DNA of 64,000 nt from positions 1-64,000 of the IMG/VR virus record IMGVR_UViG_3300050025_000126. One strand, given 5' to 3'. Origin of the DNA: a virus. Every line of letters begins with the position of its first letter. Positions within the stretch are counted from its first letter, which is position 1. Under the pieces are notes generated by a model. That model saw only the letters and a program-made list of their open reading frames with translations, ran no database searches and was not told where the DNA came from. Positions 1,346 through 50,674 of this stretch are shown piece by piece. A program made the position numbers and the translations under genes.

Positions 1346-1839
1346 TGGACAACGTTAGGGCGATTAAGCTTGTCGCTCTCAAAGACGTAATGTGCGAACC
1401 ATCAACTGACGCACAATGGTATAAGCTTATTAGATGGTATTCTAGAACCTTTGCCACACCCTTACACGAAGTAGATGATTTGCCTAGATTAGACATTCTA
1501 AGGGCTTATTTTTCTGAACATTATGAGAACATGGACGAAGGCGAGTTACACCAAGAGCTACAAGACCTACTCAAGCCCGAAGATAAGCTACAGGATAGCC
1601 TCAACAAGGCCAAAGACGAGTCTGATGTAGACGACCTGGTGAAAGCCGCAGAAGCAGAAAACAAGGCCTTAAAAGCGAAGAGGAGCAGCCAGGTTAAAGC
1701 TGCCCCTCCAAAAGAGAATATGACTAAGGGTATGTTAGAAGCTATTGAAGGTCTTGGTGCGGCAATTACCAATATCAAGGATGCGATGCCCGAAGATGAT
1801 AAGAGCTTCGGGCTTGATTTCTCAGCTGATAGCCTTTGA
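1345..1839 (+). CDS. hypothetical acidic protein, possible second tail chaperone
   Basis: TAATG coupling to previous gene; RWYSRTFATPLHEVDDLP region; synteny. Confidence 0.5.
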   Translation: MDNVRAIKLVALKDVMCEPSTDAQWYKLIRWYSRTFATPLHEVDDLPRLDILRAYFSEHYENMDEGELHQELQDLLKPEDKLQDSLNKAKDESDVDDLVKAAEAENKALKAKRSSQVKAAPPKENMTKGMLEAIEGLGAAITNIKDAMPEDDKSFGLDFSADSL

Positions 1840-2292
1840 GACTGCTTCTAGCTTGAGCTTCAGAGCCGTGACATCTCCCTTAAGGGCTTTGTTTTCGTTG
1901 ATTAGCCTACGGACTTTGGAAACTACATTTAGGGTCTTTGTCTCCAGGAGGTCTTGCAGTTCACCGTAACAAACTTGGGCTCCATCAGCGTCGATAAGGT
2001 ACTGTCTGACTTCACAGGAACTTCCTTGGTTGGTTGTGCCGCCTTGCGTCGATAAAGGGAGCTGTTTTTGGTAATACGATCTCCGCTCCAGCTAGTGAGC
2101 AGGGCGGTAGAACTTGAGATTGCCATCAATAAGCTGCTGTACGTCACAGTCCCTCCATCCTACTGTAACCCTCGCCTTTTCATCGGAGTAGCAGACAAGG
2201 TCCCCTTCCTGTACAACATCGCCGGCCTTAAGCCAGCGTCCTTCGGGAAGGGTTTCGGTAACCTGTGTCGTGTAAGTGTGCGTGTTTTCCAT
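1822..2292 (-). pseudogene. RRK-module protein with C-terminal coiled coil, interrupted (TAG at 2092-2094)
   Basis: Leaderless ATG 2292; module LPEGRWLKAGDVVQEGD…FYRP; same frame reopens after TAG to TGA at 1822; a YRRK linker lies in another frame. Confidence 0.6.
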
Positions 2293-2299
2293 AAAGGGC

Positions 2300-2337
2300 A
2301 CTTTAACATATTCCTAAACCAAGTCAACAACAATCTT
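2300..2337. promoter_or_regulatory. back-to-back early(-)/late(+) promoter junction
   Basis: Minus: TTGACT-16-TAAAGT; plus: CAATCTT; contains GTCAACAACAATCTT. Confidence 0.75.
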
Positions 2338-2368
2338 TCAAGGGATGGAGTCAAAGGGATAACGCACG

Positions 2369-4969: not shown

Positions 4970-6969
4970 TGGCGACTTCCCTTGATCCATTAAACCTATT
5001 AGGTAATGCCTATGACAATAGGTTTGTGGGTGTTGATGAGCTATTGCCTGGTGCTTTTAGTAAGCCTGAGAATAATATAACTGAAACGGTTCCCTTGCCT
5101 AAAATTGAGCAAGGGGTGGTATATGATGTAGGTAAGGACTATGGTAAAGAAGGCGAAACCGATCTTTCTTCAAGCCCCTCTTGGTGTATAGCTATATTCC
5201 GTTTGGGGACACCCGTTACCTATTCTAGATTTGAGTCTAAGTCGATATCTTCTGTGACCGTACTGGGCGGTGTCATTAGTAGAAAAGAGGCTCCTTTAAT
5301 TATTACTAGTGAATGTATACAGATGCAGGTTTCTTGCACCAAAGAGAGTTGTACTAAGACTCTTAACGCAACTTTAAAGGGCGATACCAACTACCTGTCT
5401 GCCAACACTGTTCTTCCTGGGGACTGGTTGATGGCATGGATGCATACTAATAGTAATGATACTAAAAGAATAATAAAGTCTTTACAAAGTGGTGCGGCTG
5501 CCAATGATTTTAACTCTGGTTTAAAGTTTGTCGGTAGGGTTCACGATATCAGGAAGAATCTTAGGGTAGACGCTAACGGAGCTAAGACTGTTACCTATAA
5601 CTTGCAAGGCGTAGGGTTTGATGAACTTTCCACTATGTTCTTTTATGATCCTGCTTTAGCTACAGCTGAGTCATTAACCGATATATGGCAGTTTTTGGCT
5701 CATATCAGTCAGGATATAAACGCCTGGATTAGCAAGGTTAGTCCTAGTGCTGGACAAATTAAAGACAACGCCGAGGCTTTGGTTGTTGGGTTTTTAGATT
5801 TGATAGTAGGTAAATCGACATCTTCAATTATCAATAGACCTGGGGCTAGAACCGGTCTTGACTCTGATTTGAAGGTTTCGCCTCAGGTAAGTGGAGAGGC
5901 ACCTTATGCATATTTAGTACCTGTAAGTGTAGCAACTACATTAGGCAGAACGATTGTCGATTCTAAAAAGGGCGACGGGTTCAGCCATCAAGCATTCGGA
6001 TACGCAGACCTGCTTACACTGCTGACGGGTGTTCAAAAGTATAAACCTGTCGATGACGAATTCCACCATGGGTTTGTGCCAGACAATATTGATTTTAGTA
6101 AATCGACCAAGGGCCGTCTTAGATGTTCAGATTCAATTAAAGGCACGTATATACCTATTGAGCAATGTTTTATCAATACTCCATTGTGGGGATTGTTGAA
6201 CCAGTTTAAGAACCCTACCATTAACGAGATGTACACTTGTATTAGGCCAGATGTTTTTGGCGATCTGATGCCAACGATTGTGTTTAGGCAAATGCCGTTT
6301 AGTTCTAACTCAATACAAGAAGACTCTTCCATGCCTTTGACCAGGTTTTTGGGCATGCCTAGGTGGAAGATACCAGCGGCTTTGATTACTAATTTAGATT
6401 TGGGTCGGTCCAATACCGCTCACTGGAATTTTATTCATGTTTACGGCAATCTAAACCTATATCATCCTGAGTCAGAAACCAGCATTGCTGCTCAAATGTT
6501 AAAAAACCCTCCCATTGCTGACTATGTTGATATGGCCAGATCGGGGATGAAACCGTTTATGTCTGTCGTATCTCAATCCATAGAGGACGCTTCTATTCCT
6601 GGTAGAGGTAGAAAGTGGATGGAGGCTATTGCTGATTGGACTATGGGCGTTCAGTTTACCTTGAACGGTACAGTAAATTGTTTTGGTATTCAAAGCCCCA
6701 TTGCAGAAGGCGACAATATCGAAGTAGACGGAATAGCTCTTCACATAGATAGTTTGACGCATAGCTGTGGAATTAACGGCAACTATAAATACTTCAATAC
6801 AACGCTTAATGTCACACATGGTATGCCCATAGACCAAGGTGAAGCTAGCCCAATTGCTCCTAGATACCCAGGCATGGCCCCAATCGTCTTTAGCAACGAT
6901 TTAAGGCAGTCTGGGGACGACAAGGTAGCAACTACTTATAACCCAGGGACGACGGTGGAGAAGGGCTAA
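4969..6969 (+). CDS. baseplate hub/tail protein
   Basis: 666 aa; KFVGRV…YNLQG N-terminal motif and C-terminal LNGTVNCFG…IDSLTHS…TTLNVTHG typical of hub (gp27/gp44-like) proteins; follows TMP. Confidence 0.65.
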   Translation: MATSLDPLNLLGNAYDNRFVGVDELLPGAFSKPENNITETVPLPKIEQGVVYDVGKDYGKEGETDLSSSPSWCIAIFRLGTPVTYSRFESKSISSVTVLGGVISRKEAPLIITSECIQMQVSCTKESCTKTLNATLKGDTNYLSANTVLPGDWLMAWMHTNSNDTKRIIKSLQSGAAANDFNSGLKFVGRVHDIRKNLRVDANGAKTVTYNLQGVGFDELSTMFFYDPALATAESLTDIWQFLAHISQDINAWISKVSPSAGQIKDNAEALVVGFLDLIVGKSTSSIINRPGARTGLDSDLKVSPQVSGEAPYAYLVPVSVATTLGRTIVDSKKGDGFSHQAFGYADLLTLLTGVQKYKPVDDEFHHGFVPDNIDFSKSTKGRLRCSDSIKGTYIPIEQCFINTPLWGLLNQFKNPTINEMYTCIRPDVFGDLMPTIVFRQMPFSSNSIQEDSSMPLTRFLGMPRWKIPAALITNLDLGRSNTAHWNFIHVYGNLNLYHPESETSIAAQMLKNPPIADYVDMARSGMKPFMSVVSQSIEDASIPGRGRKWMEAIADWTMGVQFTLNGTVNCFGIQSPIAEGDNIEVDGIALHIDSLTHSCGINGNYKYFNTTLNVTHGMPIDQGEASPIAPRYPGMAPIVFSNDLRQSGDDKVATTYNPGTTVEKG

Positions 6970-7117
6970 CCTTCCTTCGGAAGTAATCAACCGAAGTATC
7001 CTCTAGCTTTTGACCAATACAACAGTTAACCGGCCTCCATGTCTTGTCGTTTAACGAACAAAACTGATCTGTGTCTTTGATTCGTTCTCCCAATTTTAGC
7101 ATTCTGTATTCTGGCAT
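6932..7117 (-). CDS. single RRK-module protein
   Basis: PEYRMLKLGERIKDTDQF…W…IG…YFRRKV; AGGAG RBS. Confidence 0.75.
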   Translation of the reverse strand: MPEYRMLKLGERIKDTDQFCSLNDKTWRPVNCCIGQKLEDTSVDYFRRKVSPSPPSSLGYK

Positions 7118-12807: not shown

Positions 12808-13338
12808 TTAATTACTTCTTTGTGTGTAGGCGACGGCGGAAAGTATTGTCTTCTGCAATACTCTGTGGAACAACTCGACGATAGACGGTCCTACCTTATT
12901 CCAGCCGCCATTATACTGCGTCTCGTCACCTTTCTTTACGGTTTCTCCCTCTTGGAGGAAACGGTATCGAGGAGCAGCTTTGATCTTGCGGCGGTAGGTA
13001 AAGCTCACGTGACCAGCGTTTTGACCTACGTAACAAGTAGACTCCCAGCCCCGCCGCCCCCAAAGCTCGTCTCCTTCTTTAAGAGTCTCGTCCTTAAGCA
13101 AATACCGATATCCTTCTGGTGGGGTAGCTGGTGCTCCACGGAAGATTTCGGGCTTGGCAATATAAACGGAGGTAGGGCGACTATACTTGGCATCAAAGTT
13201 GCCACTTGGGATACCGTGGTGGTCCTTACAGAATTCTTCGATCTCCGCAAGGAAGGGGTTAATTTTCCCTTCTCCCAGGGGAATGGTCCAGTAAAGGTCA
13301 AGAAACTTTTGGAACTCGGGAGTGAACTTTTGCGTCAT
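12808..13338 (-). CDS. RRK-module protein (2 modules; last one frameshifted near 12880)
   Basis: PEGYRYLLKDETLKEGDE…YRRKI and PRYRFLQEGETVKKGDE…; consensus ending FRRRL lies in another frame stopping at 12812. Confidence 0.75.
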   Translation of the reverse strand: MTQKFTPEFQKFLDLYWTIPLGEGKINPFLAEIEEFCKDHHGIPSGNFDAKYSRPTSVYIAKPEIFRGAPATPPEGYRYLLKDETLKEGDELWGRRGWESTCYVGQNAGHVSFTYRRKIKAAPRYRFLQEGETVKKGDETQYNGGWNKVGPSIVELFHRVLQKTILSAVAYTQRSN

Positions 13339-13365: not shown

Positions 13366-13403
13366 ATAATATCATTTTCCCAGGTTTTGTCAACATCAAT
13401 CTT
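13366..13403. promoter_or_regulatory. back-to-back early(-)/late(+) promoter junction
   Basis: Minus: TTGACA-16-TATTAT; plus: CAATCTT 6 nt before GTG 13410. Confidence 0.75.
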
Positions 13404-16312: not shown

Positions 16313-17023
16313 CTACTTTGCTTTCCTGCGGAAGCGATAAGTTGGTTGCTCCTTGACCTTGTAGCCCTCAAAGCCGTCGTTTATAGCTATGTTAAACCAG
16401 CCCCTAGTTACAGAATCATAAGCTTGGTCTCCCTTGCGAACGACTTCATTGTTCTTCAAGGTGCGGTACTTGGGCTCTGGCTTCTTGACTGGTGGTGTTG
16501 TGATTAGACGGCGCCTGGACCTTTCAGCCCCCTGCTGTTGGTTGGTTGTTTTACCAACTTCAACAGACGGTCGCCATCCAAGGCCGGTAATTACTTCGTC
16601 GCCCTTTTCTACAACGTCTCCATCAACCAAGTAGTAATAATGCGGATCGTTAGCTCCTGGTATCTTTACATTTGGGTAGACTTCTTCCTTGGGCTCTTCG
16701 ACAAGGGCCAATTCATTAATCTGAAACATTCCAACCGTTGCGTCATCTGCGCTTGCATATTTAATTGCCTTCTTTACAATTGGGTCCGGGCGGTAGCAAA
16801 GGTTCTTGTGCCAGTGACCGGGGATGTCTTTACCTACTGAACAAACATGCAGCTCGGCATCGTCTTGAACTACAGTCTTCGCCTTTTTGTCTATATACAA
16901 ATAAAGGTCCGTTTCTTGAAGGATTTCTCCCGCCTTAAGAAACCTTCCTGGTGGCAAAACTTGCTTGTGCTTCTTTCCGTTGATGTCTGTGTATCGATGG
17001 TACTTCTTGGTTGCTTGCGTCAT
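16313..17023 (-). CDS. RRK-module protein (3 modules)
   Basis: LPPGRFLKAGE…YRP; YYYLVDGDVVEKGDE…RRRL; KYRTLKNNEVVRKGDQ…FRRK. Confidence 0.8.
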   Translation of the reverse strand: MTQATKKYHRYTDINGKKHKQVLPPGRFLKAGEILQETDLYLYIDKKAKTVVQDDAELHVCSVGKDIPGHWHKNLCYRPDPIVKKAIKYASADDATVGMFQINELALVEEPKEEVYPNVKIPGANDPHYYYLVDGDVVEKGDEVITGLGWRPSVEVGKTTNQQQGAERSRRRLITTPPVKKPEPKYRTLKNNEVVRKGDQAYDSVTRGWFNIAINDGFEGYKVKEQPTYRFRRKAK

Positions 17024-17552: not shown

Positions 17553-18362
17553 CTACTTCATCTTCGACGCTACATCTACGAAGAAGCTCGTACCACCAAT
17601 AGGCTTAACCCATGCACGCAAGGCCCCTCCGAAGCAGCAGCCGCCGTCGCAAGCAATGGTATTGTTTAGAACCTGCGGCTGCCAGTAGACAGCGTGCCCA
17701 AAACACACCGTCCATCGTCCATCCCAATAGTGATACCAGGGATAAGAACCTTCCGGTACCCACCACACGTCGTCAATTTCTATGCTTTTTACTGGAGTAA
17801 GGCGATTATCCTTGACATTCCTGGTAAAGTATCTGTTGCGTATGAATGCGTTAACTTCTTGCTTGAACAAAGAAGGAGCCAGGCCTGCATGTAGACATAC
17901 CACGTCATAGGGTTCCTGGGTGCCTTCCTTTGTAAAATACACCGCATGAGGACAAGAAGCCATAAACTCCAGGCTTGAATGTGACAGCTGGTTGTAAGAT
18001 GGCGGGCAGCGCATGGGAATTTTGTAAGACGGGTCCAAAAGGTTCTTGAGAACGTGGTAGTGGTATCTTGTATGCTTAGAATCGTGGTTCCCGACGACGC
18101 AATACGTTGGACTAGTTGCAGCATATTCTTTAACGAATTGCACCACACCTTCAGGGTCTGGGCCGCGATCTACCAGGTCCCCAAGCAACACAACCGAATC
18201 GTCCATAGTAGGCTTTAACTTGTCCCAAAGCTCCTTAAGCTCCTCTAGACAGCCATGGACGTCCCCAATTGCAATTACCCTACCCTTAGGCATGGGCAAA
18301 TGCTTTACAATTACGGTTTTAGATGCTTTGAATTGGGTTGGGTCAGTCATGGGGTCTTTCAA
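17553..18362 (-). CDS. calcineurin-like metallophosphoesterase (PPP/ApaH-like)
   Basis: GDVHG, GDLVDRG, GNHD, HAG, FGH and DGGC motifs. Confidence 0.9.
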   Translation of the reverse strand: MKDPMTDPTQFKASKTVIVKHLPMPKGRVIAIGDVHGCLEELKELWDKLKPTMDDSVVLLGDLVDRGPDPEGVVQFVKEYAATSPTYCVVGNHDSKHTRYHYHVLKNLLDPSYKIPMRCPPSYNQLSHSSLEFMASCPHAVYFTKEGTQEPYDVVCLHAGLAPSLFKQEVNAFIRNRYFTRNVKDNRLTPVKSIEIDDVWWVPEGSYPWYHYWDGRWTVCFGHAVYWQPQVLNNTIACDGGCCFGGALRAWVKPIGGTSFFVDVASKMK

Positions 18363-18630
18363 GTTCTCTAATCATAAAGGCAATCGCCCCAGAAGTCCAG
18401 GTAAAGGAATCGCAAGTCATTTCAGCTAGATAATTTCTAGAGAATCTAGCACAATATTTCCTAGCAGTCTTTAAGCCATACTCATTAAAAAGGATTAACC
18501 ATGCTGTTGTCATGGCGCTTTTCCCGTACCAACCCCACGATGCGTCTTCACCTGAAGCGATTGTGTATCCTTTGCTTGTTACGGTTCTGGCACCGTCCCT
18601 AGTCGAAAATCTGTAAACATTAGACTCCAT
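18343..18630 (-). CDS. hypothetical protein (DUF6166-like)
   Basis: SWGWYGKSAMTTAWLIL motif; leaderless after promoter TTGACA-17-TAATAT at 18637-18665. Confidence 0.5.
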   Translation of the reverse strand: MESNVYRFSTRDGARTVTSKGYTIASGEDASWGWYGKSAMTTAWLILFNEYGLKTARKYCARFSRNYLAEMTCDSFTWTSGAIAFMIRELERPHD

Positions 18631-18648
18631 ATATAAATATTAGCCTAC

Positions 18649-19206
18649 TTATACTTCGGTGTCAATATTAAAATGCTCGATATTGTGTTCCCGGCAAAAG
18701 CGATTGAGCTTCAAAACGTTGTCTGTGTCATTCAGGCGTTGATACATGCCTCGAATGGTCTTTTCGGGAACCTGGTGGACGTTGCGCTTTAAGGAGGTTT
18801 CGACGCTGATGTTTAGCGTTACGATTACGGTTTTGTAGCCATATGCGTCGGCAATCTTAACGTAATGCGAAAACTCTGATATAGTGGTGTTGGTGTTGTC
18901 GAGGAAGATGCAGGAGTACTTAATTATATTCCACACTCCATTATATAGAGGTGGCCAGTACCCCTGGACACAACTGATAAAACGCCTTAGGCAAGATTGG
19001 TGAGCGAGGCCAATCATAGAGCGGTCAAAGTTATAGGTCCCGGCCTGAATAAAATAACTATCAGCGCTACAATCATTGTACGGGCCTGTAGTTCTTGAAT
19101 ATATCATTTGCTCAATCGTGCTCTTCCCCGCCCCAGGAATTCCTCTCAAAATGAAGACGGTTGGCTTATCGAATTTGACTTGCTGCAAAAATTCTTCTTT
19201 GGTCAT
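18649..19206 (-). CDS. P-loop kinase (AAA_33, N4BP2/PNK-like)
   Basis: LRGIPGAGKST Walker A, CSADSYF, LDNTN, RNVHQVP; likely start ATG 19206. Confidence 0.85.
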   Translation of the reverse strand: MTKEEFLQQVKFDKPTVFILRGIPGAGKSTIEQMIYSRTTGPYNDCSADSYFIQAGTYNFDRSMIGLAHQSCLRRFISCVQGYWPPLYNGVWNIIKYSCIFLDNTNTTISEFSHYVKIADAYGYKTVIVTLNISVETSLKRNVHQVPEKTIRGMYQRLNDTDNVLKLNRFCREHNIEHFNIDTEV

Positions 19207-19207
19207 T

Positions 19208-19936
19208 TTAACCCTTATTGATTTGGCGGCGGTAGACGTCAGCTTTAAAAGTCTTGGCGTTAGTATACCCACTCTTTACCCATTGCTTTCCCCGGAGGTA
19301 TTCGTCTCCTTCCAGGATAACTTCGCCTACGTTCAAAAAGATATAGCATGGGCGATTGACATTAGCAACCTTTTCTTCCTTCACCGGTTGCGTGATCTTG
19401 CGGCGGCAATGACCTACATTGTTCTCCCACAGGGTGTTACCGTCCCACATACCCTGAACCTTCCACCCACCATTCCCGATATTCCATTCGTCAGTTCCTC
19501 GGATCTTGTCTCCCTCTTGGAGGTAATAGTAACCGTTGTTCTTGGCAGGCTTTTGTTTGACTTCAGGCGTCTTAACTTCTACCTTGCGGCGAACGACGAA
19601 GCGCTCACTATAAGTAGAGGCCTCCTTTCCGATTTGGCTGGAGCAACCCATCCAAAAGGCCTCACTGGCGCTAGGGGCAACCTTATAATTAAATTCGTCG
19701 CCCTTTTTAACAATTTCATCGGGCTTCACAACGCGGTAGCCCTTGCCTACATTAAGAGTCTTGACGCGCTTGGCCTTAGACTTGATGGGGCGGCGGTAAC
19801 GGCAGGCTTGGCTATCGTCCAGAACAACTCCTATCATGCTAAGGCACTCTTCATAAATCCCATCAGAACCGGCCCATTCATCGCCCTTACGAATGGTGTC
19901 ACCAGCGGTCAATGTCTTGTATTGTTTGTTTGCCAT
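19208..19936 (-). CDS. RRK-module protein (4 modules)
   Basis: Leaderless ATG 19936 seven nt after -10 box; four GDE…RR[KPQ] modules. Confidence 0.8.
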   Translation of the reverse strand: MANKQYKTLTAGDTIRKGDEWAGSDGIYEECLSMIGVVLDDSQACRYRRPIKSKAKRVKTLNVGKGYRVVKPDEIVKKGDEFNYKVAPSASEAFWMGCSSQIGKEASTYSERFVVRRKVEVKTPEVKQKPAKNNGYYYLQEGDKIRGTDEWNIGNGGWKVQGMWDGNTLWENNVGHCRRKITQPVKEEKVANVNRPCYIFLNVGEVILEGDEYLRGKQWVKSGYTNAKTFKADVYRRQINKG

Positions 19937-19943
19937 GGAAGAC

Positions 19944-19981
19944 ACTTTATCATATTCAGAAACGAAGTCAACAACAATCTT
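19944..19981. promoter_or_regulatory. back-to-back early(-)/late(+) promoter junction
   Basis: Minus: TTGACT-16-TAAAGT; plus: CAATCTT 6 nt before ATG 19988; identical 15-mer. Confidence 0.75.
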
Positions 19982-19987
19982 ATGTGT

Positions 19988-20716
19988 ATGCTCGGCTTCG
20001 TAACCCAAGAACAACCCAATGCGTTAAGGATAGATTATAACTCGAAAGAGTTCTTGAATCTACACAAATCTTTTCCTGTTTTGACACTAGTTGTTAAGAA
20101 GGTTTGTGTGGGGTGTGGAGTTGAAAAGCCTCTGGAAGAATTCTCCCTTCAAAAACTAGGCAAGCTAGGAAGAAGGTCCAGATGTAAAGATTGCATCAGT
20201 CAAGAAAGGTCCGCCTATCTTTTGGAAAATTTAGATAGCGAAAGGGCAAAAAAAAGGAGCTACGCAGCAGCCCACAAAGAACAAGGTAGACTAAGAGGTA
20301 AGAGGTTCCGGGAAAGCAATCCTGATCGACGGCTGGCTATTAGAAAAAAATCGGAGGATAAGTGTAGAGCGTCTAGGAATGAAAGAAACAGATTCAGAAC
20401 AAAAACCGATATTGCCTTTAGATTGAGAAAGGCTATCAGAGGTAGGGTAAACAAATGGGTTAAGGGCATAGGCAAGGCCGGTTCTGGAGTTAAAGATATT
20501 GGTTGCACTATGGAGTTTTTTAAAGGATACATTGAGTCGAAATTTCTTCCCGGAATGAGTTGGGATAACTATGGGTTGAGAGGATGGCACATAGACCATA
20601 TCGAACCTTTAATTAATTTTGATCCTACAGACAGGGGGCAATTTCTTAAGGCGTGCCACTACACTAACCTACAGCCCTTGTGGTGGCTGGAGAACCTTTC
20701 TAAGGGGAGTAAATAA
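19988..20716 (+). CDS. HNH-family homing endonuclease
   Basis: Zn ribbon KVCVGC…CKDC; GMSWDNYG…WHIDHIEP…HYTNLQPLW…NLSKG; start reassigned from 19076. Confidence 0.85.
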   Translation: MLGFVTQEQPNALRIDYNSKEFLNLHKSFPVLTLVVKKVCVGCGVEKPLEEFSLQKLGKLGRRSRCKDCISQERSAYLLENLDSERAKKRSYAAAHKEQGRLRGKRFRESNPDRRLAIRKKSEDKCRASRNERNRFRTKTDIAFRLRKAIRGRVNKWVKGIGKAGSGVKDIGCTMEFFKGYIESKFLPGMSWDNYGLRGWHIDHIEPLINFDPTDRGQFLKACHYTNLQPLWWLENLSKGSK

Positions 20717-23399: not shown

Positions 23400-23481
23400 G
23401 TTTGGGTCCTTTGCTAGAGTTTGCTTAATCTTTGAAAGTGAAACTAGTCTATACCGGGTCTGGGGAAGAGTCAATCTTTAT

Positions 23482-24265: not shown

Positions 24266-24304
24266 ACCTTAGCTCAGGAGCCAAAACAAGTCAACAACAA
24301 TCTT
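24266..24304. promoter_or_regulatory. back-to-back early(-)/late(+) promoter junction
   Basis: Minus: TTGACT-17-TAAGGT; plus: CAATCTT 6 nt before GTG 24311; identical 15-mer. Confidence 0.75.
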
Positions 24305-31136: not shown

Positions 31137-31309
31137 TGTATTTTTCGTGGAGCCCATTGGTGTTCTTCCTTATTGGTATGATTATGTGGTTACCAAATTG
31201 GAAGTACGGTAAAATTGTTGAATTTGGAGGTTGGATGGTACTGTCGGCTATTCTTACTTTTTGTGTTGGAATAGCGTCGCATTACGGTTGGCACAAGGTT
31301 AACTGGTAA
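31136..31309 (+). CDS. small two-TM membrane protein
   Basis: MYFSWSPLVFFLIG…; two hydrophobic segments. Confidence 0.55.
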   Translation: MYFSWSPLVFFLIGMIMWLPNWKYGKIVEFGGWMVLSAILTFCVGIASHYGWHKVNW

Positions 31310-31912: not shown

Positions 31913-31919
31913 GTTTTGT

Positions 31920-31957
31920 ATCTTAGCACGTTATAAAAAGATGTCAACAACAATCTT
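31920..31957. promoter_or_regulatory. back-to-back early(-)/late(+) promoter junction
   Basis: Minus: TTGACA-16-TAAGAT, ATG 7 nt later; plus: CAATCTT, ATG 6 nt later; identical 15-mer. Confidence 0.8.
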
Positions 31958-35795: not shown

Positions 35796-36998
35796 TTATA
35801 CCTTTCGGCGGAACTTCTTGAACTTGGCATTAAAGGGGCCTACGACGCAGCTATAATAGGTTCGATCTAGAGGTCCCCAAACCGGTTCTTCTTCGTTAAA
35901 ACCAACAACCTGTTCATCTGAAATTCTAAGGGGTTCATTCTCAATAAGAAATCGATACCCATCTCCTACCTTACGCCGTGCAACAAGACTACCTCCGCAG
36001 TCTCCAGGTGTATCTTCCGCAAGTCCACCAACAGCTATCCAGCTGCTGTTACCCATTGCGGCAAAAATAATTTCATCGGTCTTTTTCATCTTCTCGTCCT
36101 GTCCTAGGCGTCGATATCCCTTGCCAACATCGAAGCCATCGTAAGGAATGGGCTCTACGGGCATAGCTTGCTTGTCTTCGGTGCGTTCAAGCTCAGTGGC
36201 CCAGAACCAGGAATGAGTGTACTTTTCCTTTTCTTGCGGTACGTCATACTTGACACGACACGCCTTATTGGCTAGCTTGTTATAATATCTGTAATCCACA
36301 ATGACGCCCGTAGCTCCAAGGAATCGAGAATATTTGCTCGACACCTTAACCCTATCGTGGGATTGAACAACGCTGGCAGGCTTTGCTGGCTGTTCATATT
36401 TGTAATCGTTTGGCACCTTGCGGCGATATTCAAACCCAGAAAAACCCAGCATATTGGTCTGACACCCTACCCAATGGGGGCGAACGTCTAGCCACTCATT
36501 GGAAAGATTCTTGTCGAAATATTCATCCCCAGTTTCCAGCTTCTCTCCAGCCTTCAGTGGGCGATACTTTTGAACCGGTGTGACAATCTTGCGGCGGTAA
36601 TAGCTCCAGGATGTGTCTCTTGCATTAACCAGACAGCCTACACGGTCAGAAGGACGCCAGGTATTGTCAAGGGCAAGCCATTCGTCACCCTTTTCGATAG
36701 TCTCGCCTTTAACCATATACCTATAACCCGCGTCACAGGCTTTGGGCAATGGACTAACCGGCTCTGGCTTGACTTCAGGTGCCTTAACCTCCACCTTGCG
36801 GCGGAACGTAACGCCTTTCATTTCTCCAATTTTGTTTCCAATGCAGGCGTGAGCGTGGATGAAGTGTGGCTTATTTTTGTATTCTCCATTACTAAAATCA
36901 ACGTCCCAAACAAATTCGTCCCCTTCCTTAACGACCTCTCCCTTACGAAGCCATCGGTAACCTGGTGCGCACTTTGGTCTACGGGTCTTTGTACTCAT
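35796..36998 (-). CDS. RRK-module protein (5 modules + SH3/KOW-like domain)
   Basis: Five YRxLxxGE…[GTS]DE…RRK[VI] modules; DRVKV…GATGVIV…WFWATELE insert; AAGGAG RBS. Confidence 0.85.
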   Translation of the reverse strand: MSTKTRRPKCAPGYRWLRKGEVVKEGDEFVWDVDFSNGEYKNKPHFIHAHACIGNKIGEMKGVTFRRKVEVKAPEVKPEPVSPLPKACDAGYRYMVKGETIEKGDEWLALDNTWRPSDRVGCLVNARDTSWSYYRRKIVTPVQKYRPLKAGEKLETGDEYFDKNLSNEWLDVRPHWVGCQTNMLGFSGFEYRRKVPNDYKYEQPAKPASVVQSHDRVKVSSKYSRFLGATGVIVDYRYYNKLANKACRVKYDVPQEKEKYTHSWFWATELERTEDKQAMPVEPIPYDGFDVGKGYRRLGQDEKMKKTDEIIFAAMGNSSWIAVGGLAEDTPGDCGGSLVARRKVGDGYRFLIENEPLRISDEQVVGFNEEEPVWGPLDRTYYSCVVGPFNAKFKKFRRKV

Positions 36999-37033: not shown

Positions 37034-37103
37034 ATACTAACATATCTTAAAAAGTTGTCAATACTTTATTTTAGGTTGACTTTAAATTAAAGTATGGTAA
37101 GAT
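37034..37103. promoter_or_regulatory. divergent pair of sigma70-type promoters
   Basis: Minus TTGACA-16-TAGTAT; plus TTGACT-16-TAAGAT with ATG 37112 eight nt later. Confidence 0.75.
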
Positions 37104-41722: not shown

Positions 41723-42395
41723 TCAAGACAAAACAAATAAGGCCATAGCCCTTGGTAAGAAATTCTGTCCTGATTACAATGTCAAGCTAAAAAGTTCTAG
41801 CTGGGTACAAAAGGCTATCGGGTGGGTTCTAGGTAAAATTGGTAATAAAGATTACATGAATAGTTACTGTACCACGATGGGTCAAACCACCTACGTGCCC
41901 AATATGGACGGTGACTACTTGTGGGCAACTCTCCTACACGAAATCCAACACGCCAAAGACGCCCAAAAGATTAGTAACACCCTATTCGGTACAGCTTACC
42001 TTATGCCTCAGTTGCTCGGTATCCTGGGTGTCTTCTATACCCTCGTGGTTAGCATTGGCTGCGTGTTTGGCTGGCCTTTGGCGCTTCTATGGGGCTGTAC
42101 CTCTCTTTTATGTCTAGCGCCTCTACCGGCATTTGGGCGGGCCTATATTGAGGTAAGAGGTTATACCGTTTCCTTGGCTGTTTATTTTTGGGCCGGTGTG
42201 TTACAAGACGAACAGGCCTACATCGAATTCCTTGTTAATACTTTTAGTAGCGGGGCTTACTATTTTATGTGGCCGTTTAAATCTTGGGTTCGCTCCTACT
42301 TCCAACAGAAGCTCCAGGAGCTTAAGACCGGGCAGTTTCAATTAGACGCTTATCTGGCAGCGTGTAAGGTCCTGGCCAAAGATTTAGCCAACTAG
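41715..42395 (+). CDS. membrane HExxH metallopeptidase-like protein
   Basis: TTMGQTTY…LLHEIQH…two TM…EVRGY; AAGGA RBS. Confidence 0.65.
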   Translation: MTNQDKTNKAIALGKKFCPDYNVKLKSSSWVQKAIGWVLGKIGNKDYMNSYCTTMGQTTYVPNMDGDYLWATLLHEIQHAKDAQKISNTLFGTAYLMPQLLGILGVFYTLVVSIGCVFGWPLALLWGCTSLLCLAPLPAFGRAYIEVRGYTVSLAVYFWAGVLQDEQAYIEFLVNTFSSGAYYFMWPFKSWVRSYFQQKLQELKTGQFQLDAYLAACKVLAKDLAN

Positions 42396-43415
42396 AGCTG
42401 CCTCCTTTACAATTGATTGAACTACCGTATTAATTTCTTTCAGGTTCGGACTACTAGGCAGCAAGGTCTTTTTCAGAGCCAGTTGAATTAGGCTTTCTGC
42501 ATCGCTAGCCCAAGCCTCTATCTTTTCAAAAGGCCAAGAGCCTTCGCGGATTTCAATAAGTTCTTTTGCGTCTGGACGTTTGATGATTAGTGTACCAGTT
42601 TCAAGGCACTCTAGACATTCTCTATAGAGTCTAACCAAATGCATTAAATGCTTGGAGTCATATCCGCATTTCTCTTCCAACAGCTTTCGCTTAGGGTTTC
42701 TGGACTTAGCCCAATTATCGTAAGCTTCCTTTTGACTTACTAGAGCACTGTACCTCTTCTCCTTATACAAAAGCTCTACGAAGTTGGTTTCAAAGCCCAG
42801 GCCCTTGGCGGCTTCTTTGTATAAATCTAGCTGTTGGGTTTTGTCAATAGCCCAGTCGCCAGCCATCATATCCAGGACCTTTGTCACAGAGGCATCTGCT
42901 GCGTGGAGCTTGGGTACCATACTTCTAGCGGGCAGGCCGAATTCTTCGCGGGTGGGAATTTGAAGCACTGGGTTAAGAAGGTAGCCGCGATGCGTCCTGA
43001 TTTTATGGAGTTGGCCCTTTGCGTAACCGGCAAATGTAGCGGCAATTCTCTTAGACAAGAACGAGCGCCTAATGCTCCTAATCCTCTCCCACTGCGGAGT
43101 AGTCAATAGGATATCTGATTCGTCAACAAACAAAAGCTCTAAAATATTAGGATTGTTGTCATACGCCAGCTTGGCGAATTTCAACAAAGAAAACACCTCA
43201 AAATCATAAGGCTCTTTACCTTGAGCCTGGTCGAATTTTTCTACGAAACCAAACACAACCTCGGGCGGCAAAGTGGCTACACCTTTGATATCAACGTCCG
43301 ACCCTTCTATGTTTGTGTTATAGCAGTGACTACCAGCCAAGGTCAAAAAAATAACGTGTTCTTTCAACCATTTTGGATTTTGTGGATATTGAAGTGTGTC
43401 TAGATCTATTTTCAC
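42384..43415 (-). CDS. RlaP/YcgL-type (Pol-beta superfamily) nucleotidyltransferase
   Basis: AGSHCY…SDVDIKG, NNPNILELLF, GYDSKHLMHLVRL. Confidence 0.85.
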   Translation of the reverse strand: MKIDLDTLQYPQNPKWLKEHVIFLTLAGSHCYNTNIEGSDVDIKGVATLPPEVVFGFVEKFDQAQGKEPYDFEVFSLLKFAKLAYDNNPNILELLFVDESDILLTTPQWERIRSIRRSFLSKRIAATFAGYAKGQLHKIRTHRGYLLNPVLQIPTREEFGLPARSMVPKLHAADASVTKVLDMMAGDWAIDKTQQLDLYKEAAKGLGFETNFVELLYKEKRYSALVSQKEAYDNWAKSRNPKRKLLEEKCGYDSKHLMHLVRLYRECLECLETGTLIIKRPDAKELIEIREGSWPFEKIEAWASDAESLIQLALKKTLLPSSPNLKEINTVVQSIVKEAALVG

Positions 43416-44110
43416 TTAAGCCCCGCTTCTATCTGTCCCCTAGTCTTAGACCTATCCTTGGTCAAAGCCCAGTAAATATCTAATAGGTCGCCAGCGTTTT
43501 CAGGAATATAATGAACGTCTACCGCCTTTAACTGATCTAGGAAGTCCTTATAGTCAGTAAAACCTCGTTTGGTCAAATCAGCCAAGACAGAAATGGTCAT
43601 GTTGGTCGACTCTCTGCGGCCTAAACCAATCTTCTTGACTACCTTGGGAATTCTAATTAAAGAAGACAAAGGATAGTTAGAGCCCGTATAAGATGTAGTT
43701 TGCAAGGCCATATCCCGCTGAAAGCCCTCTGAACAATAAAAAGCTGTCAGGTCGTTCTCAAGGTTCATCCAAACCCCAATTTGGCAATGCGTAAAGTCAA
43801 AGCTGTCAACGAGAGCCCTTAAAGTAGGTTTGAAGTATTTACACAATTGGACCTTCTTGTCATCAATTGTAATTGTAGCGGCATTAAGGTCGTTCTTTTT
43901 GACCCCCAGCACATCGTTAGCCACTAATTCAAATACGGTTTGGGATTGTTGGGTTGGGTAAAGGTCTAAGTCATCGAATTCCTTAAGTAACCCTCCACCA
44001 GCCAAAACGACCGACCTGATGTGCTTGGATAGAAGATAATCCTTAACTGCCCCTCTTACCCTTTGTATCGCTCTTAGTCGGAATTCTTGCTTTAGCTTGT
44101 TGTCCATCAC
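43412..44110 (-). CDS. nucleotidyltransferase, CCA/poly(A) polymerase head-like
   Basis: LAGG…DDLDLY and SFDFTHCQ motifs. Confidence 0.7.
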   Translation of the reverse strand: MMDNKLKQEFRLRAIQRVRGAVKDYLLSKHIRSVVLAGGGLLKEFDDLDLYPTQQSQTVFELVANDVLGVKKNDLNAATITIDDKKVQLCKYFKPTLRALVDSFDFTHCQIGVWMNLENDLTAFYCSEGFQRDMALQTTSYTGSNYPLSSLIRIPKVVKKIGLGRRESTNMTISVLADLTKRGFTDYKDFLDQLKAVDVHYIPENAGDLLDIYWALTKDRSKTRGQIEAGLK

Positions 44111-46507: not shown

Positions 46508-47278
46508 TTACGACACCTTGCGGCGGAAGCGTCTCCCCGGAGTGGTGCTACCGGTGCAACTTGGCCAAATAACAGGAATATAACCAACAGAAGCCTTCAC
46601 CTTCTTCCATCCGCGCTTACACGTATAATACTGGTCATTTTCCTTAATAACCTCTGTAGGCTCCAATTCTCGATACTTAGAGGCCTTCTTTGCTGGCTTC
46701 TTTTCAACCACATCTACCAATTCCAACTCATGGTCGGCATACTTAGGCGTATCTCCTCCGACTACCAAAACAAAGTTGCGCCATGATTCTGGGGCGTCTT
46801 TCTCTAGGACCTTAAAGACCTTACCAATTTCGCCCTTGCGTCCTGCGTGAAGAATCTTGACACTTTGACCAACCTTGAACTTGGTTTCAACGGGCTTAAC
46901 AATCTTGCGGCGACACCGACCTGCGTTACAAGCTGACAAGTGTTCTGTTCCCGGCTGCGTACAACCGTGGTCATAGGTATGCCACTCCTTATGGTCGTCT
47001 GTCCACTGATCTCCTTTTTGAATGACGTCGCCCACCTTCAAATAATAGTAATCATTATTGGTAGGGTCTGGGCGGTACCAGTTCCGACAAATCTCTTCAT
47101 CCCGCAGAACGTTATTGCCAACATTCCTAGAAATGACCGGCTCTGACTTGGCATACTTGTAGAGCCAAAGGTCGCCTTCCTTGATAACATCTCCATACTT
47201 AAGGAAGCGTCCTGGGGGCAAAACTTCTCGTACTTGCTCTGTCTTGGTGATTTCGCGGGTCCACACATGTTCGTTCAT
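46508..47278 (-). CDS. RRK-module protein (3 modules + KOW-like domain)
   Basis: LPPGRFLKYGD…YRP; YYYLKVGD…CRRKI; FKVGQSVKI…GEIGKV; KYRELEPTE…FRRKV. Confidence 0.85.
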   Translation of the reverse strand: MNEHVWTREITKTEQVREVLPPGRFLKYGDVIKEGDLWLYKYAKSEPVISRNVGNNVLRDEEICRNWYRPDPTNNDYYYLKVGDVIQKGDQWTDDHKEWHTYDHGCTQPGTEHLSACNAGRCRRKIVKPVETKFKVGQSVKILHAGRKGEIGKVFKVLEKDAPESWRNFVLVVGGDTPKYADHELELVDVVEKKPAKKASKYRELEPTEVIKENDQYYTCKRGWKKVKASVGYIPVIWPSCTGSTTPGRRFRRKVS

Positions 47279-47305
47279 TGATATTCTCCTGAGTTGTTAA
47301 AAGTA

Positions 47306-47344
47306 ATAATACCAAAGGTTCGTAGGCGAGTCAACAACAATCTT
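47306..47344. promoter_or_regulatory. back-to-back early(-)/late(+) promoter junction
   Basis: Minus: TTGACT-17-TATTAT; plus: CAATCTT; identical 15-mer. Confidence 0.75.
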
Positions 47345-47354
47345 TTCTTTAAAG

Positions 47355-48107: not shown

Positions 48108-48579
48108 CCAAGAAAAACCAAAATGGCGCAACGTATACGAAACTCTTAAACCAGAGGACCACGACCAATTAGAAGCAAATTCTGCCATTAACGAGTTTAG
48201 GGGTGGACTTCCAAAAGAGGAAGCCGAATCCAAAGCACACCAAGACTACCTCAAGAACCACGCTATGGATAGTGCAGCTTTTCACTATATCGGGATGCGC
48301 GCTGCAACAGCCGCTCAACACGAACCAGCCGCCAAAAAACACGGGGCCGCATACTCCTTGGCTATGAAGCACCTCGGTTTAAACCCGCTAGATGCTCCAC
48401 CCAAAGAAATACTAGATCGCGTGAAGGATGTTGAAAAGTCTCCGTATAAATTCTCTCCACATAGTGCAGATGAATTTTTTGTCCCTAAAATGCCACAACT
48501 TCCAGAGCCAACAGAAGAACAAAAAACTCTAGAGCTAGTTGAAAAGCTTAAATCTATGCGAACAAACAGTCCTAAATAA
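48100..48579 (+). CDS. hypothetical late protein
   Basis: EANSAINEFRGGLPKEEAE motif. Confidence 0.55.
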   Translation: MDNQEKPKWRNVYETLKPEDHDQLEANSAINEFRGGLPKEEAESKAHQDYLKNHAMDSAAFHYIGMRAATAAQHEPAAKKHGAAYSLAMKHLGLNPLDAPPKEILDRVKDVEKSPYKFSPHSADEFFVPKMPQLPEPTEEQKTLELVEKLKSMRTNSPK

Positions 48580-48584
48580 CACAA

Positions 48585-49565
48585 ATGTCGCTCTCAGAAA
48601 CTCCAACGTTTAAAACATGTCCAGACTGTAAAACAAAGAAGCCAAGTTCCGCCTTTAACAAAAATGGAAACAAGCTTCAAGACTATTGTAAAGACTGTCA
48701 CTCAAAACGTCAAAAAGCCTCACGCGAAAAAAACAGCAATAGAAAGAACATTGTAATACCAGATTTTAAAACATGCTCTAACTGTGGCGTTGAAAAACCG
48801 TCTTCATGTTTTTGTAGGTCTAGGGGCAATAGAAGCGGCCTTGGCTCTTTTTGTAAGGACTGTCAGTCCAAACACCAGAAGCGCTCATACGGGAAGAACA
48901 AAGCTAGAAAGTATATTTTAATCCCAGACTTTAAGACATGTCCGGGATGTAACATAGAGAAACCGGGTTGTGTTTTTGGGCAATCTAGGGGCTCGAAGGA
49001 TGGACTTGGTGTATACTGCAAGGTATGCTCGGCTATTCATAACAGAAAGCGTAGATACGGTGTCACGGAAGAGTGGTACCAGGCAATCTTACTCGCACAA
49101 AATTACTCTTGTGCTATTTGTAAAACCAAGACACCTGGTGGTAAGGGCACTTGGCACACAGACCACAACCATTTAACGGGTGAAGTTCGCGGACTGTTAT
49201 GTAACAACTGTAATTCGGCAATCGGTTGTTTTAAAGATTCTACCTTTTTAATCGATAAAGCAATTAAATATCTAAGCCTTCCTATGTCGGGTATTGTCTA
49301 CAAAAAAGCTTCGGCTAAAAACATAAGTGCCGCATTTTTAAAGGCCCAAAACGGTTTGTGTAAAGTCTGCCTAACTGACCTATCTATAAAGGGCTCTTGT
49401 TTAGACCACTGTCACTTAACTGGAATAGTTAGAGGCTGTCTTTGTAGATTTTGTAATTTAGGGTTAGGGCGTTTTGGGGATTTTGGGGATTCAGCATCAG
49501 TAATGCAAAGTGCTATCGAGTATCTAATTAAGTTTGAATCCCTTAAGGTCGCTCCGAAAGTTTAA
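48585..49565 (+). CDS. endonuclease VII-family homing endonuclease with tandem nuclease domains
   Basis: Three FKTCxxC Zn ribbons; two CxxC…DHxHxTGxVRGxLCxxCN domains. Confidence 0.85.
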   Translation: MSLSETPTFKTCPDCKTKKPSSAFNKNGNKLQDYCKDCHSKRQKASREKNSNRKNIVIPDFKTCSNCGVEKPSSCFCRSRGNRSGLGSFCKDCQSKHQKRSYGKNKARKYILIPDFKTCPGCNIEKPGCVFGQSRGSKDGLGVYCKVCSAIHNRKRRYGVTEEWYQAILLAQNYSCAICKTKTPGGKGTWHTDHNHLTGEVRGLLCNNCNSAIGCFKDSTFLIDKAIKYLSLPMSGIVYKKASAKNISAAFLKAQNGLCKVCLTDLSIKGSCLDHCHLTGIVRGCLCRFCNLGLGRFGDFGDSASVMQSAIEYLIKFESLKVAPKV

Positions 49566-49701
49566 TAACCTCCGCGTACCTCTTAGCTGTCATCTTTTTG
49601 CCCTTAGCTAATCCTAGGGCTAATAGGTGTCGTTCTTGCCGCCTACGACGTTCAAGAGTAGGATTAGAATTCTTGAACCGTGTTCTGGTGCGCTTAGACA
49701 T
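49543..49701 (-). CDS. small basic protein
   Basis: MSKRTRTRF…; AAGGA RBS. Confidence 0.45.
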   Translation of the reverse strand: MSKRTRTRFKNSNPTLERRRRQERHLLALGLAKGKKMTAKRYAEVIKLSERP

Positions 49702-50674
49702 TAGTCTTATCCTTGCTGTACCATTCTGTGCGAGCCTTGACTGCACCATCAAAGGCCTTAAGGCAATTCGCTAGATACTTGGCCAAAATATAATCCGGTG
49801 TGTCACTGCCGTTTTCGAGGGTATACTTCTTAATAAGCAGCTTTAGCTCATGGGTGAAGGTAGTTGACTTTTCTTCTACTTTGGATTCTACTGGCTTGAC
49901 GTCTGGAATTGTGGTCTCCTTCTTTACCACACTAGTAATCTTGCGACGATAACGGTCTCCCCCTTTCCCAAATCCCGAATCTCCTACTTTGGCATTGTAA
50001 GGCGTATAATGTCCTGAGGACCCCATCCAGTCGTCACGACGGTATTCAAACTGGTCTCCTTCAATCAACTTCTCCCCAATGTCCAAATAGCGATGCGTTG
50101 CGTCTTGCATACGAATAGGACGACGAATCTCTCCATTCTTTACCCAACTCTTCCCTACAACCATGCCATGCGCCCCAGGGCTAGTAACGGCTTCCCACAC
50201 GCCCCTATTATTCTTCCACTGGTCAGTAGTCGTAGTCGCTACTTCGCCCTCTGCAAGAATACGATATTCAATCTTTTCAACCGGTTTAGCTACAGGTTCA
50301 GAGGTCTTAACCTCAACAACAGGCTTGGTAACTCGCGGGCGACGGTATTGGGCCTCTAGAATGTCTTTCTTTTCTAGAGCTTCCCCGTAAGACGACACAA
50401 TCTTTTGCCACTCCTTTTGATTCCTACACCGGTATTCGTCACCCTTACGCAGCTTGTCACCAGTGCGTAGCTTGATGTAGGGCGAAAGAGTCTTTGGCAC
50501 AGGACGGCGAAACCGGAATCGCAATACTCCACTGTTTTTCCACTTGTTGGGAGTGTTGATTCCATCTCCGGTCCACTTATTTACATCTTCCCACTTATCC
50601 TTAAATGGGTATGCCCACTGGTCTCCAAGCTTAATGGCTTCGTCTGCTCCTAAAATTCTATACTTTGTCTTCAT
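49694..50674 (-). CDS. RRK-module protein (4 modules + C-terminal helical phage domain)
   Basis: Four modules; C-term ELKLLIKKYTLENGSDTPDYILAKYL. Confidence 0.8.
   Translation of the reverse strand: MKTKYRILGADEAIKLGDQWAYPFKDKWEDVNKWTGDGINTPNKWKNSGVLRFRFRRPVPKTLSPYIKLRTGDKLRKGDEYRCRNQKEWQKIVSSYGEALEKKDILEAQYRRPRVTKPVVEVKTSEPVAKPVEKIEYRILAEGEVATTTTDQWKNNRGVWEAVTSPGAHGMVVGKSWVKNGEIRRPIRMQDATHRYLDIGEKLIEGDQFEYRRDDWMGSSGHYTPYNAKVGDSGFGKGGDRYRRKITSVVKKETTIPDVKPVESKVEEKSTTFTHELKLLIKKYTLENGSDTPDYILAKYLANCLKAFDGAVKARTEWYSKDKTNV

Follow-up and report, generated by a model that had tools for sequence, protein, structure and literature searches.

What is the short module that recurs in nine minus-strand genes scattered over this 64,000-nt window of viral DNA (the whole stretch that was analyzed), and what might proteins built almost entirely from such modules do for the phage? 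A sequence-only reading of the window had proposed that the genes form a combinatorial repertoire of binding domains expressed early in infection, perhaps as anti-defense inhibitors, ligand sponges or host-takeover adaptors. The window belongs to a 107-kb contig that is approximately 65% complete, and sequencing runs with matching DNA derive from peat and permafrost metagenomes.

Sequence and predicted fold of the module

An HMM built from 18 modules places 25 modules in the nine window genes (1, 1, 2, 3, 4, 2, 5, 3 and 4 domains, in order of position), and these per-gene counts are identical to those of the sequence-only reading. The modules align significantly, in that HMMs built with one gene left out at a time regain every window gene at E-values of 1.3e-7 to 5.7e-30, whereas residue-shuffled six-frame translations give a best E-value of only 3. 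Beyond the window, the profile finds a tenth gene with three modules at contig positions 84230-84991 on the minus strand (E 1.2e-23), which is absent from the seed set and brings the phage total to ten genes and 28 module copies.

The module is about 48 residues long and follows the pattern G-Y-R-x-L-x-x-G-E-x-I-x-x-G-D-E…W…G…[YF]-R-R-[KP]-[VI], with framework positions Y2-R3-L5-G8-E9-G14-D15-E16-W25-G-[YF]48-R49-R50. Both the module alignment and a consensus of 350 modules from 152 proteins confirm that a conserved framework surrounds a hypervariable center. Framework residues are kept at 83-100%, the most invariant being D15 (100%), R50 (97%) and R49, W25 and L5 (96% each), and the W25-Y48 stretches vary freely in length and sequence, with module sizes of 41-61 aa. 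Residues R3 and E9 covary (odds ratio 67, p 2e-29) and form the top MIp pair, which suggests that some of the conserved charges are structural rather than part of a ligand site; the variable loops would then be left as the likely contact surface. Single modules vary in charge (median pI 8.0, interquartile range 5.6-9.2). For whole window proteins the pI lies at 8.9-9.6 in eight cases and at 4.9 in the ninth, the 66-aa product of 2095-2292. A second module type, the LPxGR...YRP subtype, shares its relationship with the main module in alignment columns 1-18 only (hhalign probability 94%, E 1.4e-7) and, as had been claimed, always comes first, being N-terminal in all four genes that carry it. The linkers that join the modules can be read straight from the sequences and contain Glu in addition to the Lys, Pro and Val originally described.

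AF2 gives the natural 61-aa single-module protein encoded by 6932-7117 a confident four-stranded fold (pLDDT 84.6), and as modeled in this protein the module is an independent folding unit. The full-length model of the 35796-36998 protein has separate domains and disordered linkers (pTM 0.30). Searches bear out the earlier statement that the module is not recognizable as a named family. No match in Pfam or PHROGs covers a module in the nine window proteins, nor does one in NCBIfam for the eight proteins searched (2095-2292 left out), and among 150 homologs and 72 IMG/VR ORFs family matches fall on flanking domains only. Catalytic families in these three databases likewise have no match on the window module proteins. 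A profile search of all PDB sequences returned nothing below E 0.07, its rows being at chance level, and against solved structures the single-module model reached at best a Foldseek E of 2 and a VIA Z of 3.7; the ESM Atlas search gave no usable match. The best structural neighbor, a weak one found in BFVD, is A0A0U2UUX5 (Foldseek E 5e-3, probability 1.00, TM 0.66), an uncharacterized 80-aa protein of Pseudomonas phage SM1, for which homology is unproven because the identity is 20% and tblastn searches of GenBank phages were negative. In those searches, three module proteins from the window and its homologs gave nothing at E 1e-2 or 1e-3 against 50,697 GenBank phage records, and two single-module queries, including the 61-aa protein, gave chance-level matches only at E<=10. 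A 20-kb portion of the window had no megablast match among cultured phages, and literature on a YRRK motif in phages yielded unrelated gene names only.

Organization of the module genes and their promoters

The module genes lie in non-structural units on the minus strand, and the virion genes are on the opposite plus strand. The first of them, annotated as 1822-2292, does contain a module but is not a single ORF, given that an in-frame TAG at 2092-2094 closes a 66-aa ORF (2095-2292) with one LPxGR...YRP-subtype module (HMM E 6.4e-5). Past this TAG the same frame remains open at 1822-2091, where its translation has coiled-coil character and may be the severed C-terminal part of the gene; 4 nt at 1822 are missing from other sequencing runs. 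The gene for the 61-aa protein (6932-7117; HMM E 1.5e-19) is second in its transcription unit. Translation and HMM domains show that 12808-13338 encodes 176 aa, comprising a helical N-terminal part, a full module and a module without the RRK end, and that 16313-17023 encodes 236 aa with two modules behind an N-terminal one of the LPxGR subtype. The latter gene closes the operon opened by the leaderless gene 19208-19936 (242 aa, four modules). A plus-strand ORF (19076-20716) overlaps 19208-19936, and only its last ~210 aa are conserved. The leaderless gene 31310-31912 encodes 200 aa with an LPxGR subtype module, a module and a C-terminal beta domain.

That modules are mixed with SH3/KOW-like domains is borne out by the 400-aa product of 35796-36998, in which HMM, model and ortholog alignment identify five modules and, in the center of the protein, a KOW/SH3-like barrel (aa 208-276) with Z-scores of 9.2 to Spt5 KOW (rmsd 1.4 over 55 residues) and 8.3 to NusG KOW. 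The 256-aa product of 46508-47278 combines three modules, the first of them of the LPxGR subtype, with a KOW-like insert, which weakly matches an L24 KOW region (E 0.035). Finally, 49694-50674 encodes a 326-aa protein in which four modules are accompanied by a helical domain at the C-terminus (aa 272-320) that PHROGs assigns to phrog_31227, a family without assigned function. Companion domains in this phage include KOW/SH3-like barrels and coiled coils.

Six module genes had been described as first behind their own sigma70-type promoter, and a TTGAC-N16/17-TAnnnT promoter, mostly with a TG extension, is indeed found directly upstream of all six, three of which are leaderless. On the minus strand at 2300-2337, AAGATTGTTG is followed by TTGACT-N16-TAAAGT with the ATG 7 nt further on, and the other two leaderless genes follow TTGACT-N16-TAAAGT at 19944-19981 and TTGACA-N16-TAAGAT at 31920-31957, also on the minus strand. 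The minus-strand promoters at 13366-13403 (TTGACA-N16-TATTAT) and 47306-47344 (TTGACT-N17-TATTAT) are each followed by a 27-nt leader with AGGAG, and the one that precedes 35796-36998 (37034-37061, minus strand; TTGACA-N16-TAGTAT) is without the 15-mer upstream half. Gene 49694-50674 is the last of an eight-gene operon that starts from a minus-strand promoter at 55063-55100. Operon partners of the module genes include DNA ligase, an AAA_33 kinase, a metallophosphatase, HNH and RlaP. This arrangement of promoters and units fits early or middle expression of the module genes.

Distribution, fusions and divergence of the family

At a cutoff of E<=1e-3 the number of representative proteins with the module is 1,356, and at E<=1e-10 it is 322; most of them have three to five modules each. 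The HMM confirms all 77 IMG/VR loci found by pattern and 6 of 16 such loci in prokaryote genomes, one of these six being also an IMG/VR viral contig. Judged by this distribution, the module is phage-borne, widespread among uncultured phages and hitherto unnamed, and its carriers come from very different habitats and have very different G+C content. Five other phages of 75-175 kb have one module gene per genome each, and the expansion to ten genes appears specific to the peat-phage lineage.

In 20 of the 72 module-bearing IMG/VR ORFs, one or two modules follow PF18909 (dGTP_diPhyd_N), the N-terminal domain of a MazG-like phage dATP/dGTP diphosphohydrolase. The module is appended to this enzyme and lies outside the enzyme family itself, and the PF18909 domain is absent from all window genes. 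The fusions form four clusters with identities down to 29%, but 16 of the 20 fall into one cluster at 70% identity and independent fusion events are therefore few. Other fusion partners are DUF6378, DUF4406, Nuc_deoxyrib_tr, RNase_T, AAA_5 and GATase_6. Repeated fusion to enzymes of nucleotide metabolism suggests a general accessory domain for binding or tethering and not a purpose-built inhibitor repertoire. Nor is the module particular to this phage, given the many proteins that carry it, usually as one gene per phage.

A related-locus search with ortholog alignment located one relative, and a single-protein query located none. Positional orthologs of the module genes in the syntenic relative G001 are 34-41% identical, compared with a median of 66% over 46 syntenic pairs, and the module genes rank within the six most divergent of these pairs; four positional orthologs are retained despite this deep divergence. 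One site in G001 carries a promoter-plus-gene cassette that is missing from the corresponding G000 site. Module number is unequal between orthologs, with both gain and loss seen in the ortholog alignment of 35796-36998, and two paralogs share a 44-nt linker segment with 84% DNA identity, which fits shuffling at linkers. The sequence-only interpretation is thus supported in part. The 44-nt segment is the sole DNA repeat between module genes, and the idea that they are targets of a diversity-generating retroelement (DGR) was rejected for this DNA, with no RVT_1 match in the 107-kb, ~65% complete contig. Contig joints that skip 159 and 465 nt within 16313-17023, 390 nt within 19208-19936 and 589 nt across 12808-13338 are a hint of polymorphism in module number or gene presence. 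They were not used as evidence, as the sequence on either side measures just 23-81 nt with low depth and joints of this kind can arise from repeats.

Possible roles of the module arrays

The module proteins are non-enzymatic, with their modules strung like beads on the linkers. The explanation that we prefer, and to which we assign somewhat less than an even chance, is that they are tethering or adaptor arrays, made from host-type promoters, directed at a ubiquitous intracellular target and amplified from one ancestral gene. Host RNA polymerase would transcribe the genes early or mid-infection, and the arrays would then serve as multivalent tethers or adaptors whose preferred target would be nucleic acid, a nucleoprotein machine (RNA polymerase, ribosome or replisome) or a nucleotide. 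In the peat-phage lineage, amplification of one ancestral gene with reshuffling at linkers would have given ten or more fast-evolving paralogs. We prefer a ubiquitous target because the module occurs across diverse habitats and G+C contents and is recurrently fused to nucleotide and DNA enzymes. Simple polyanion binding, however, is a poor fit, since E9, D15 and E16 are acidic and all among the best-conserved module residues, and lineage-specific protein targets fit equally well given the apparently structural charges and the rapid divergence.

Tandem KOW, Tudor and Agenet arrays, such as KOW1-7 of Spt5/DSIF, the NusG KOW and tandem Tudor readers, bind nucleic acids or nucleoproteins multivalently. 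Like the module proteins, these arrays are strings of 50-60-aa beta domains on flexible linkers, and Spt5 chains are the top Foldseek rows for the full-length 35796-36998 model (E 4e-3 to 0.1). The module alone, however, is unmatched by KOW, Tudor or SH3 domains (Foldseek E>=2; VIA Z<=3.7), is predicted to have four strands whereas KOW/SH3-like domains are five-stranded barrels, and is not the site of any Pfam KOW or Tudor match.

Whatever the target, more than a thousand uncultured-phage protein clusters carry the module without a name, a solved-structure match or an assigned function. The phage provides a natural dissection kit, consisting of a 61-aa single module, proteins in which two to five modules are arrayed, and paralogs with different partner domains, with most of the genes behind defined host-type promoters. 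The binding target of the module, once found, would allow a large portion of viral dark matter to be annotated and would also explain why the module is found on dNTP pyrophosphohydrolases of other phages.

A possible but clearly less probable alternative to tethering arrays is that the modules are loop-variable protein-binding scaffolds in which the W25-Y48 region grips differing host proteins, the ten genes constituting a takeover or anti-defense repertoire. The fixed framework and variable loops, the apparently structural charges, the lineage-specific expansion, the presence of a cassette in G001 but not at the matching G000 site, and the host-type promoters, with a module gene often first in its unit, are all consistent with this explanation. 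Rapid divergence from orthologs also favors it, although unconstrained loops would evolve fast as well; moreover, no known anti-defense family matches, and occurrence in many habitats together with housekeeping-type enzyme fusions would be unusual for an inhibitor of a single host protein. None of the tests that were run points specifically to anti-defense or sponge activity. A bolder version, which we regard as unlikely, is that the module represents a small fold of a new kind and acts as a programmable binder, with a salt-bridged beta framework and a hypervariable loop, so that the phage would have an antibody-like repertoire against many host defense and housekeeping proteins. If the loops do set specificity, the module could be used as a very small binder scaffold.

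Slightly less likely still is the view that the modules are nucleotide or second-messenger sponges, soaking up defense signals or dNTPs through Y/W stacking, Arg-phosphate and Asp/Glu-ribose contacts, with the module delivering or sensing substrate in the enzyme fusions. Residues Y2, W25, Y48, R49, R50, E9, D15 and E16 are of the kinds found in nucleotide pockets, and fusions to dNTP pyrophosphohydrolase-like and deoxyribosyltransferase-like domains recur. On the other hand, a 48-aa four-stranded sheet alone offers little pocket volume, R3-E9 is apparently an internal contact, and the searches showed no likeness of the module, in sequence or fold, to Tad1, Tad2 or Acb2, or to nucleotide-binding domains of solved structure; no Tad1, Tad2 or Acb2 chain appeared in the fold searches, and no PDB sequence scored below E 0.07, although a member of such a family may lack a fold match. 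Selfish or near-neutral, moron-like cargo, in which promoter-plus-gene cassettes spread between structural genes and divergence reflects weak selection, could account for the differing cassette presence in G000 and G001, for the stop codon at 2092-2094 that shortens one copy, for the module without an RRK end and for weak contig-level deletions in other peat sequencing runs, but it is highly improbable in view of the 83-100% retention of the framework, the four positional orthologs kept across deep divergence, the long open frames and the strong, conserved promoters.

Amplification from one ancestral gene, as the preferred tether or adaptor explanation has it, resembles what is seen in giant viruses, where ankyrin, MORN and FNIP/IP22 repeat domains form multigene families. 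These families share with the module genes a lineage-specific amplification, dispersed paralogs and variable repeat number, but they differ in fold, host domain and sequence, the module genes being those of a tailed phage with bacterial sigma70-type promoters.

The module family and its predicted structure

The RRK module, a repeat that the sequence-only reading had placed in nine minus-strand genes, is directly visible when those nine intervals are translated. We built an HMM from 18 unambiguous modules, extracted by regular expression and then aligned, and searched it against the six-frame segments of the entire contig. All nine genes are matched, and the domain counts (1, 1, 2, 3, 4, 2, 5, 3 and 4; 25 in total) agree with those first proposed. 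A tenth gene, beyond the window at contig 84230-84991 (-), carries three modules that were absent from the seed set (E 1.2e-23). The remaining six-frame segments score E 0.9 or worse, residue-shuffled control segments reach a best E of only 3, and HMMs built with one gene left out still recover each gene (E 1.3e-7 to 5.7e-30). The original observation is therefore confirmed with one coordinate correction, and its interpretation is partly supported. The correction concerns 1822-2292, taken earlier as one gene: an in-frame TAG at 2092-2094 leaves a module ORF of 66 aa at 2095-2292, and the same frame beyond the TAG (1822-2091) is open and coiled-coil-like. Three other peat runs give contigs in which 4 nt of the window are missing at position 1822, through either strain variation or an assembly error.

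Modules have a median length of 48 aa (range 41-61). The consensus of 350 full-length modules, drawn from 152 proteins, is G-Y(.89)-R(.83)-x-L(.96)-x-x-G(.69)-E(.85)-x-[IVL]-x-x-G(.86)-D(1.00)-E(.81) ... W(.96) ... G ... [VI]-G ... [YF]-R(.96)-R(.97)-[KP]-[VI]. Positions 3 and 9 covary: an R at 3 is accompanied by an E at 9, a Y, I or K at 3 by a D (odds ratio 67, Fisher p 2e-29 for 336 distinct modules with phylogeny ignored), and are the top pair by corrected mutual information; from this covariation we read R3-E9 as a putative direct contact. The LPxGR...YRP subtype is, as claimed, N-terminal in all four of its genes. These four units can be aligned with one another and with an orthologue in G001 (the syntenic relative IMGVR_UViG_3300045800_000023), and their kinship to the main module is limited to the first hairpin (18 columns; hhalign probability 94%, E 1.4e-7).

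In the window proteins (eight of the nine for NCBIfam), in 150 homologues and in 72 IMG/VR ORFs, the module lies outside every Pfam, PHROG and NCBIfam match, and the module profile has no match among PDB sequences, in keeping with the earlier failure to recognise a named family; nor does any family of mundane function match, and the modules can be aligned and share a predicted fold. With the window's own modules supplied as the alignment, AlphaFold2 predicts four strands for the natural single-module protein 6932-7117 (-), at a pLDDT of 84.6 overall and ~90 across residues 1-50. Comparison of this model with solved structures gives a best Foldseek E of 2 and a best VIA-align Z of 3.7 (48,161 chains), which for a domain of 50 residues means that no match is found, short of a proven new fold. 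The nearest BFVD model is that of an uncharacterised 80-aa protein of Pseudomonas phage SM1 (E 5e-3, TM 0.66). In the model of the full 400-aa product of 35796-36998 (-), disordered linkers set the individual domains apart (pTM 0.30), and the insert at aa 208-276 forms a clear KOW/SH3-like barrel resembling Spt5 KOW6-7 (Z 9.2), NusG (Z 8.3), and PsaE and Tudor (Z 8.0-8.6). The barrel confirms the SH3/KOW-like partners proposed from the sequence.

Promoters and transcription units

Six module genes had been said to stand behind their own sigma70-type promoter, and TTGAC[AT]-N16/17-TAnnnT does lie directly ahead of six, in 6/6 cases with an upstream TG that a single base separates from the -10 hexamer. 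Five of these promoters have in common the 15-mer AAGATTGTTGTTGAC, found nine times in the contig at <=1 mismatch and on the minus strand without exception (2323-2337, 13389-13403, 19967-19981, 24290-24304, 31943-31957, 47330-47344 and 55086-55100, and contig 70160 and 79310); at <=3 mismatches the window holds 12 matches against 2.7 expected by chance. G001 keeps the same 15-mer although its module orthologues are only 34-41% identical. At most sites the complement, GTCAACAACAATCTT, lies 0-10 nt ahead of a divergent plus-strand start codon (for example 13410, 31964, 47355 and 55108). No Shine-Dalgarno sequence lies between GTCAACAACAATCTT and these adjoining starts, and the exact conservation of the 15-mer may thus serve both strands.

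The ATG of 2095-2292, 19208-19936 and 31310-31912 (all minus strand) lies exactly 7 nt past the -10 hexamer (promoters 2300-2337, 19944-19981 and 31920-31957), as does the ATG behind promoter 24266-24304, a spacing that would imply leaderless mRNAs; the remaining sister promoters have 22-35-nt leaders with AGGAG. The minus-strand units also encode DNA ligase, AAA_33 kinase, metallophosphatase, HNH nuclease, DUF3310, RlaP and DUF2786/DUF7168 proteins, and the virion parts of this myovirus-like phage, including tail sheath, baseplate proteins and a 2,313-aa baseplate-wedge-like protein, are plus-strand genes. Given the promoter type and this division of non-virion and virion genes between strands, standard phage logic suggests that the module genes are transcribed early or middle by the host polymerase. 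Minus-strand units at 42384-43415 (-) and 17553-19272 (-) contain an RlaP-family RNA-repair nucleotidyltransferase, an AAA_33 kinase and a calcineurin-like phosphoesterase.

Distribution and divergence

The window makes up the opening 64 kb of an IMG/VR viral contig of 107,276 bp (CheckV completeness ~65%); near-identical DNA is present in peat and permafrost metagenomes, and a megablast search with 20 kb of the window matches none of 50,697 GenBank phage records at the DNA level. Searched against 1.84 billion representative proteins, a 19-module profile detects 1,356 at E<=1e-3; the count falls to 322 at E<=1e-10 and to 21 at E<=1e-30. The best 150 of the 1,356 mostly have 3-5 modules (maximum 9), and the few source names read 'hypothetical', bar one unreliable-looking IMG label. 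Loci that match a degenerate DNA version of Y-R-x-L-x-x-G-E-x-[IV]-x-x-G-D-E number 77 in IMG/VR, and prokaryote genomes (596 Gb) contain 16. Since the HMM confirms 77/77 viral loci versus 6/16 genomic ones, the module is essentially phage-borne; one of the six shares a contig with a prophage-like IMG/VR record (Kaistia granuli). Module-bearing sequences differ greatly in G+C content. A single module gene, with 1-3 modules, is present in each of five further large phage records (75-175 kb, three complete), whereas G001 (66 kb) has 14-16 modules across five genes on a single strand, and thus the expansion is a trait of the window phage's lineage.

The window phage and G001 are collinear across ~65 kb, with a median identity of 66% for 46 ORF pairs aligned over >=120 aa. 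The four module-gene pairs (34, 38, 39 and 41%) are all among the six lowest. Two module-free genes, 43412-44110 (-) and contig 69396-70109 (-), are similarly divergent (29% and 40%). Alignment reveals that 35796-36998 orthologues differ by gain or loss of whole modules, and G001 has a promoter-plus-module-gene cassette (gene 31200-31586, promoter 31914-31928) at a site that is empty in the window phage. The linkers of 19208-19936 and 35796-36998 have 44 nt in common (84% identity), which would be compatible with exchange at linkers; no other pair of family members shares a repeat at the DNA level. A DGR is rejected as the source of variability, there being no reverse transcriptase or template repeat in the 107-kb contig (~65% complete). 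Elsewhere, at 23030-23281, ~13 tandem copies of the 18-nt unit AGACCCGAGCGTYCCCAK within minus-strand ORF 22857-23474 predict a hexapeptide repeat.

What the module arrays might bind

The module is autonomous, unnamed and widespread; it occurs in arrays behind host-type promoters, diverges rapidly and is amplified in a lineage-specific manner. The family is new, and its usage, as tandem arrays of small domains in a multigene family, is familiar. We infer that the arrays act by non-catalytic, multivalent binding. We lean towards a ubiquitous target, which would be nucleic acid, a nucleoprotein machine or a nucleotide, because many phage lineages carry the module and it is appended to enzymes acting on nucleotides or DNA, and because it occurs in basic window proteins (8/9, pI 8.9-9.6) with KOW-like and coiled-coil partners. 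PF18909 dGTP_diPhyd_N, a MazG-like phage dATP/dGTP diphosphohydrolase domain, begins 20 of the 72 module ORFs (best E 4e-30); these 20 form four clusters at 70% identity, with pairwise identity down to 29%. DUF6378, DUF4406, Nuc_deoxyrib_tr, RNase_T, AAA_5, GATase_6, Peptidase_M28 and a Lar-like domain each occur once as fusion partners, and none of the window module genes is fused to such an enzyme domain.

Basicity, however, is not shared by all single modules, acidic residues occupy three of the conserved positions, and the R3-E9 pair seems to be structural. These features count against a ubiquitous target and in favour of the rival explanation, that the variable loops are the contact surface and the modules are loop-specified protein binders for host takeover or anti-defence. 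Nucleotide sponging, one form of the ligand sponging proposed earlier, is conceivable, but no finding positively supports it. Among the fusion proteins, the dGTP_diPhyd_N domain of L096:4189-5826:+, on an IMG/VR contig, is interrupted by a ~210-aa insertion that is missing from close relatives and may be an intein or homing element.
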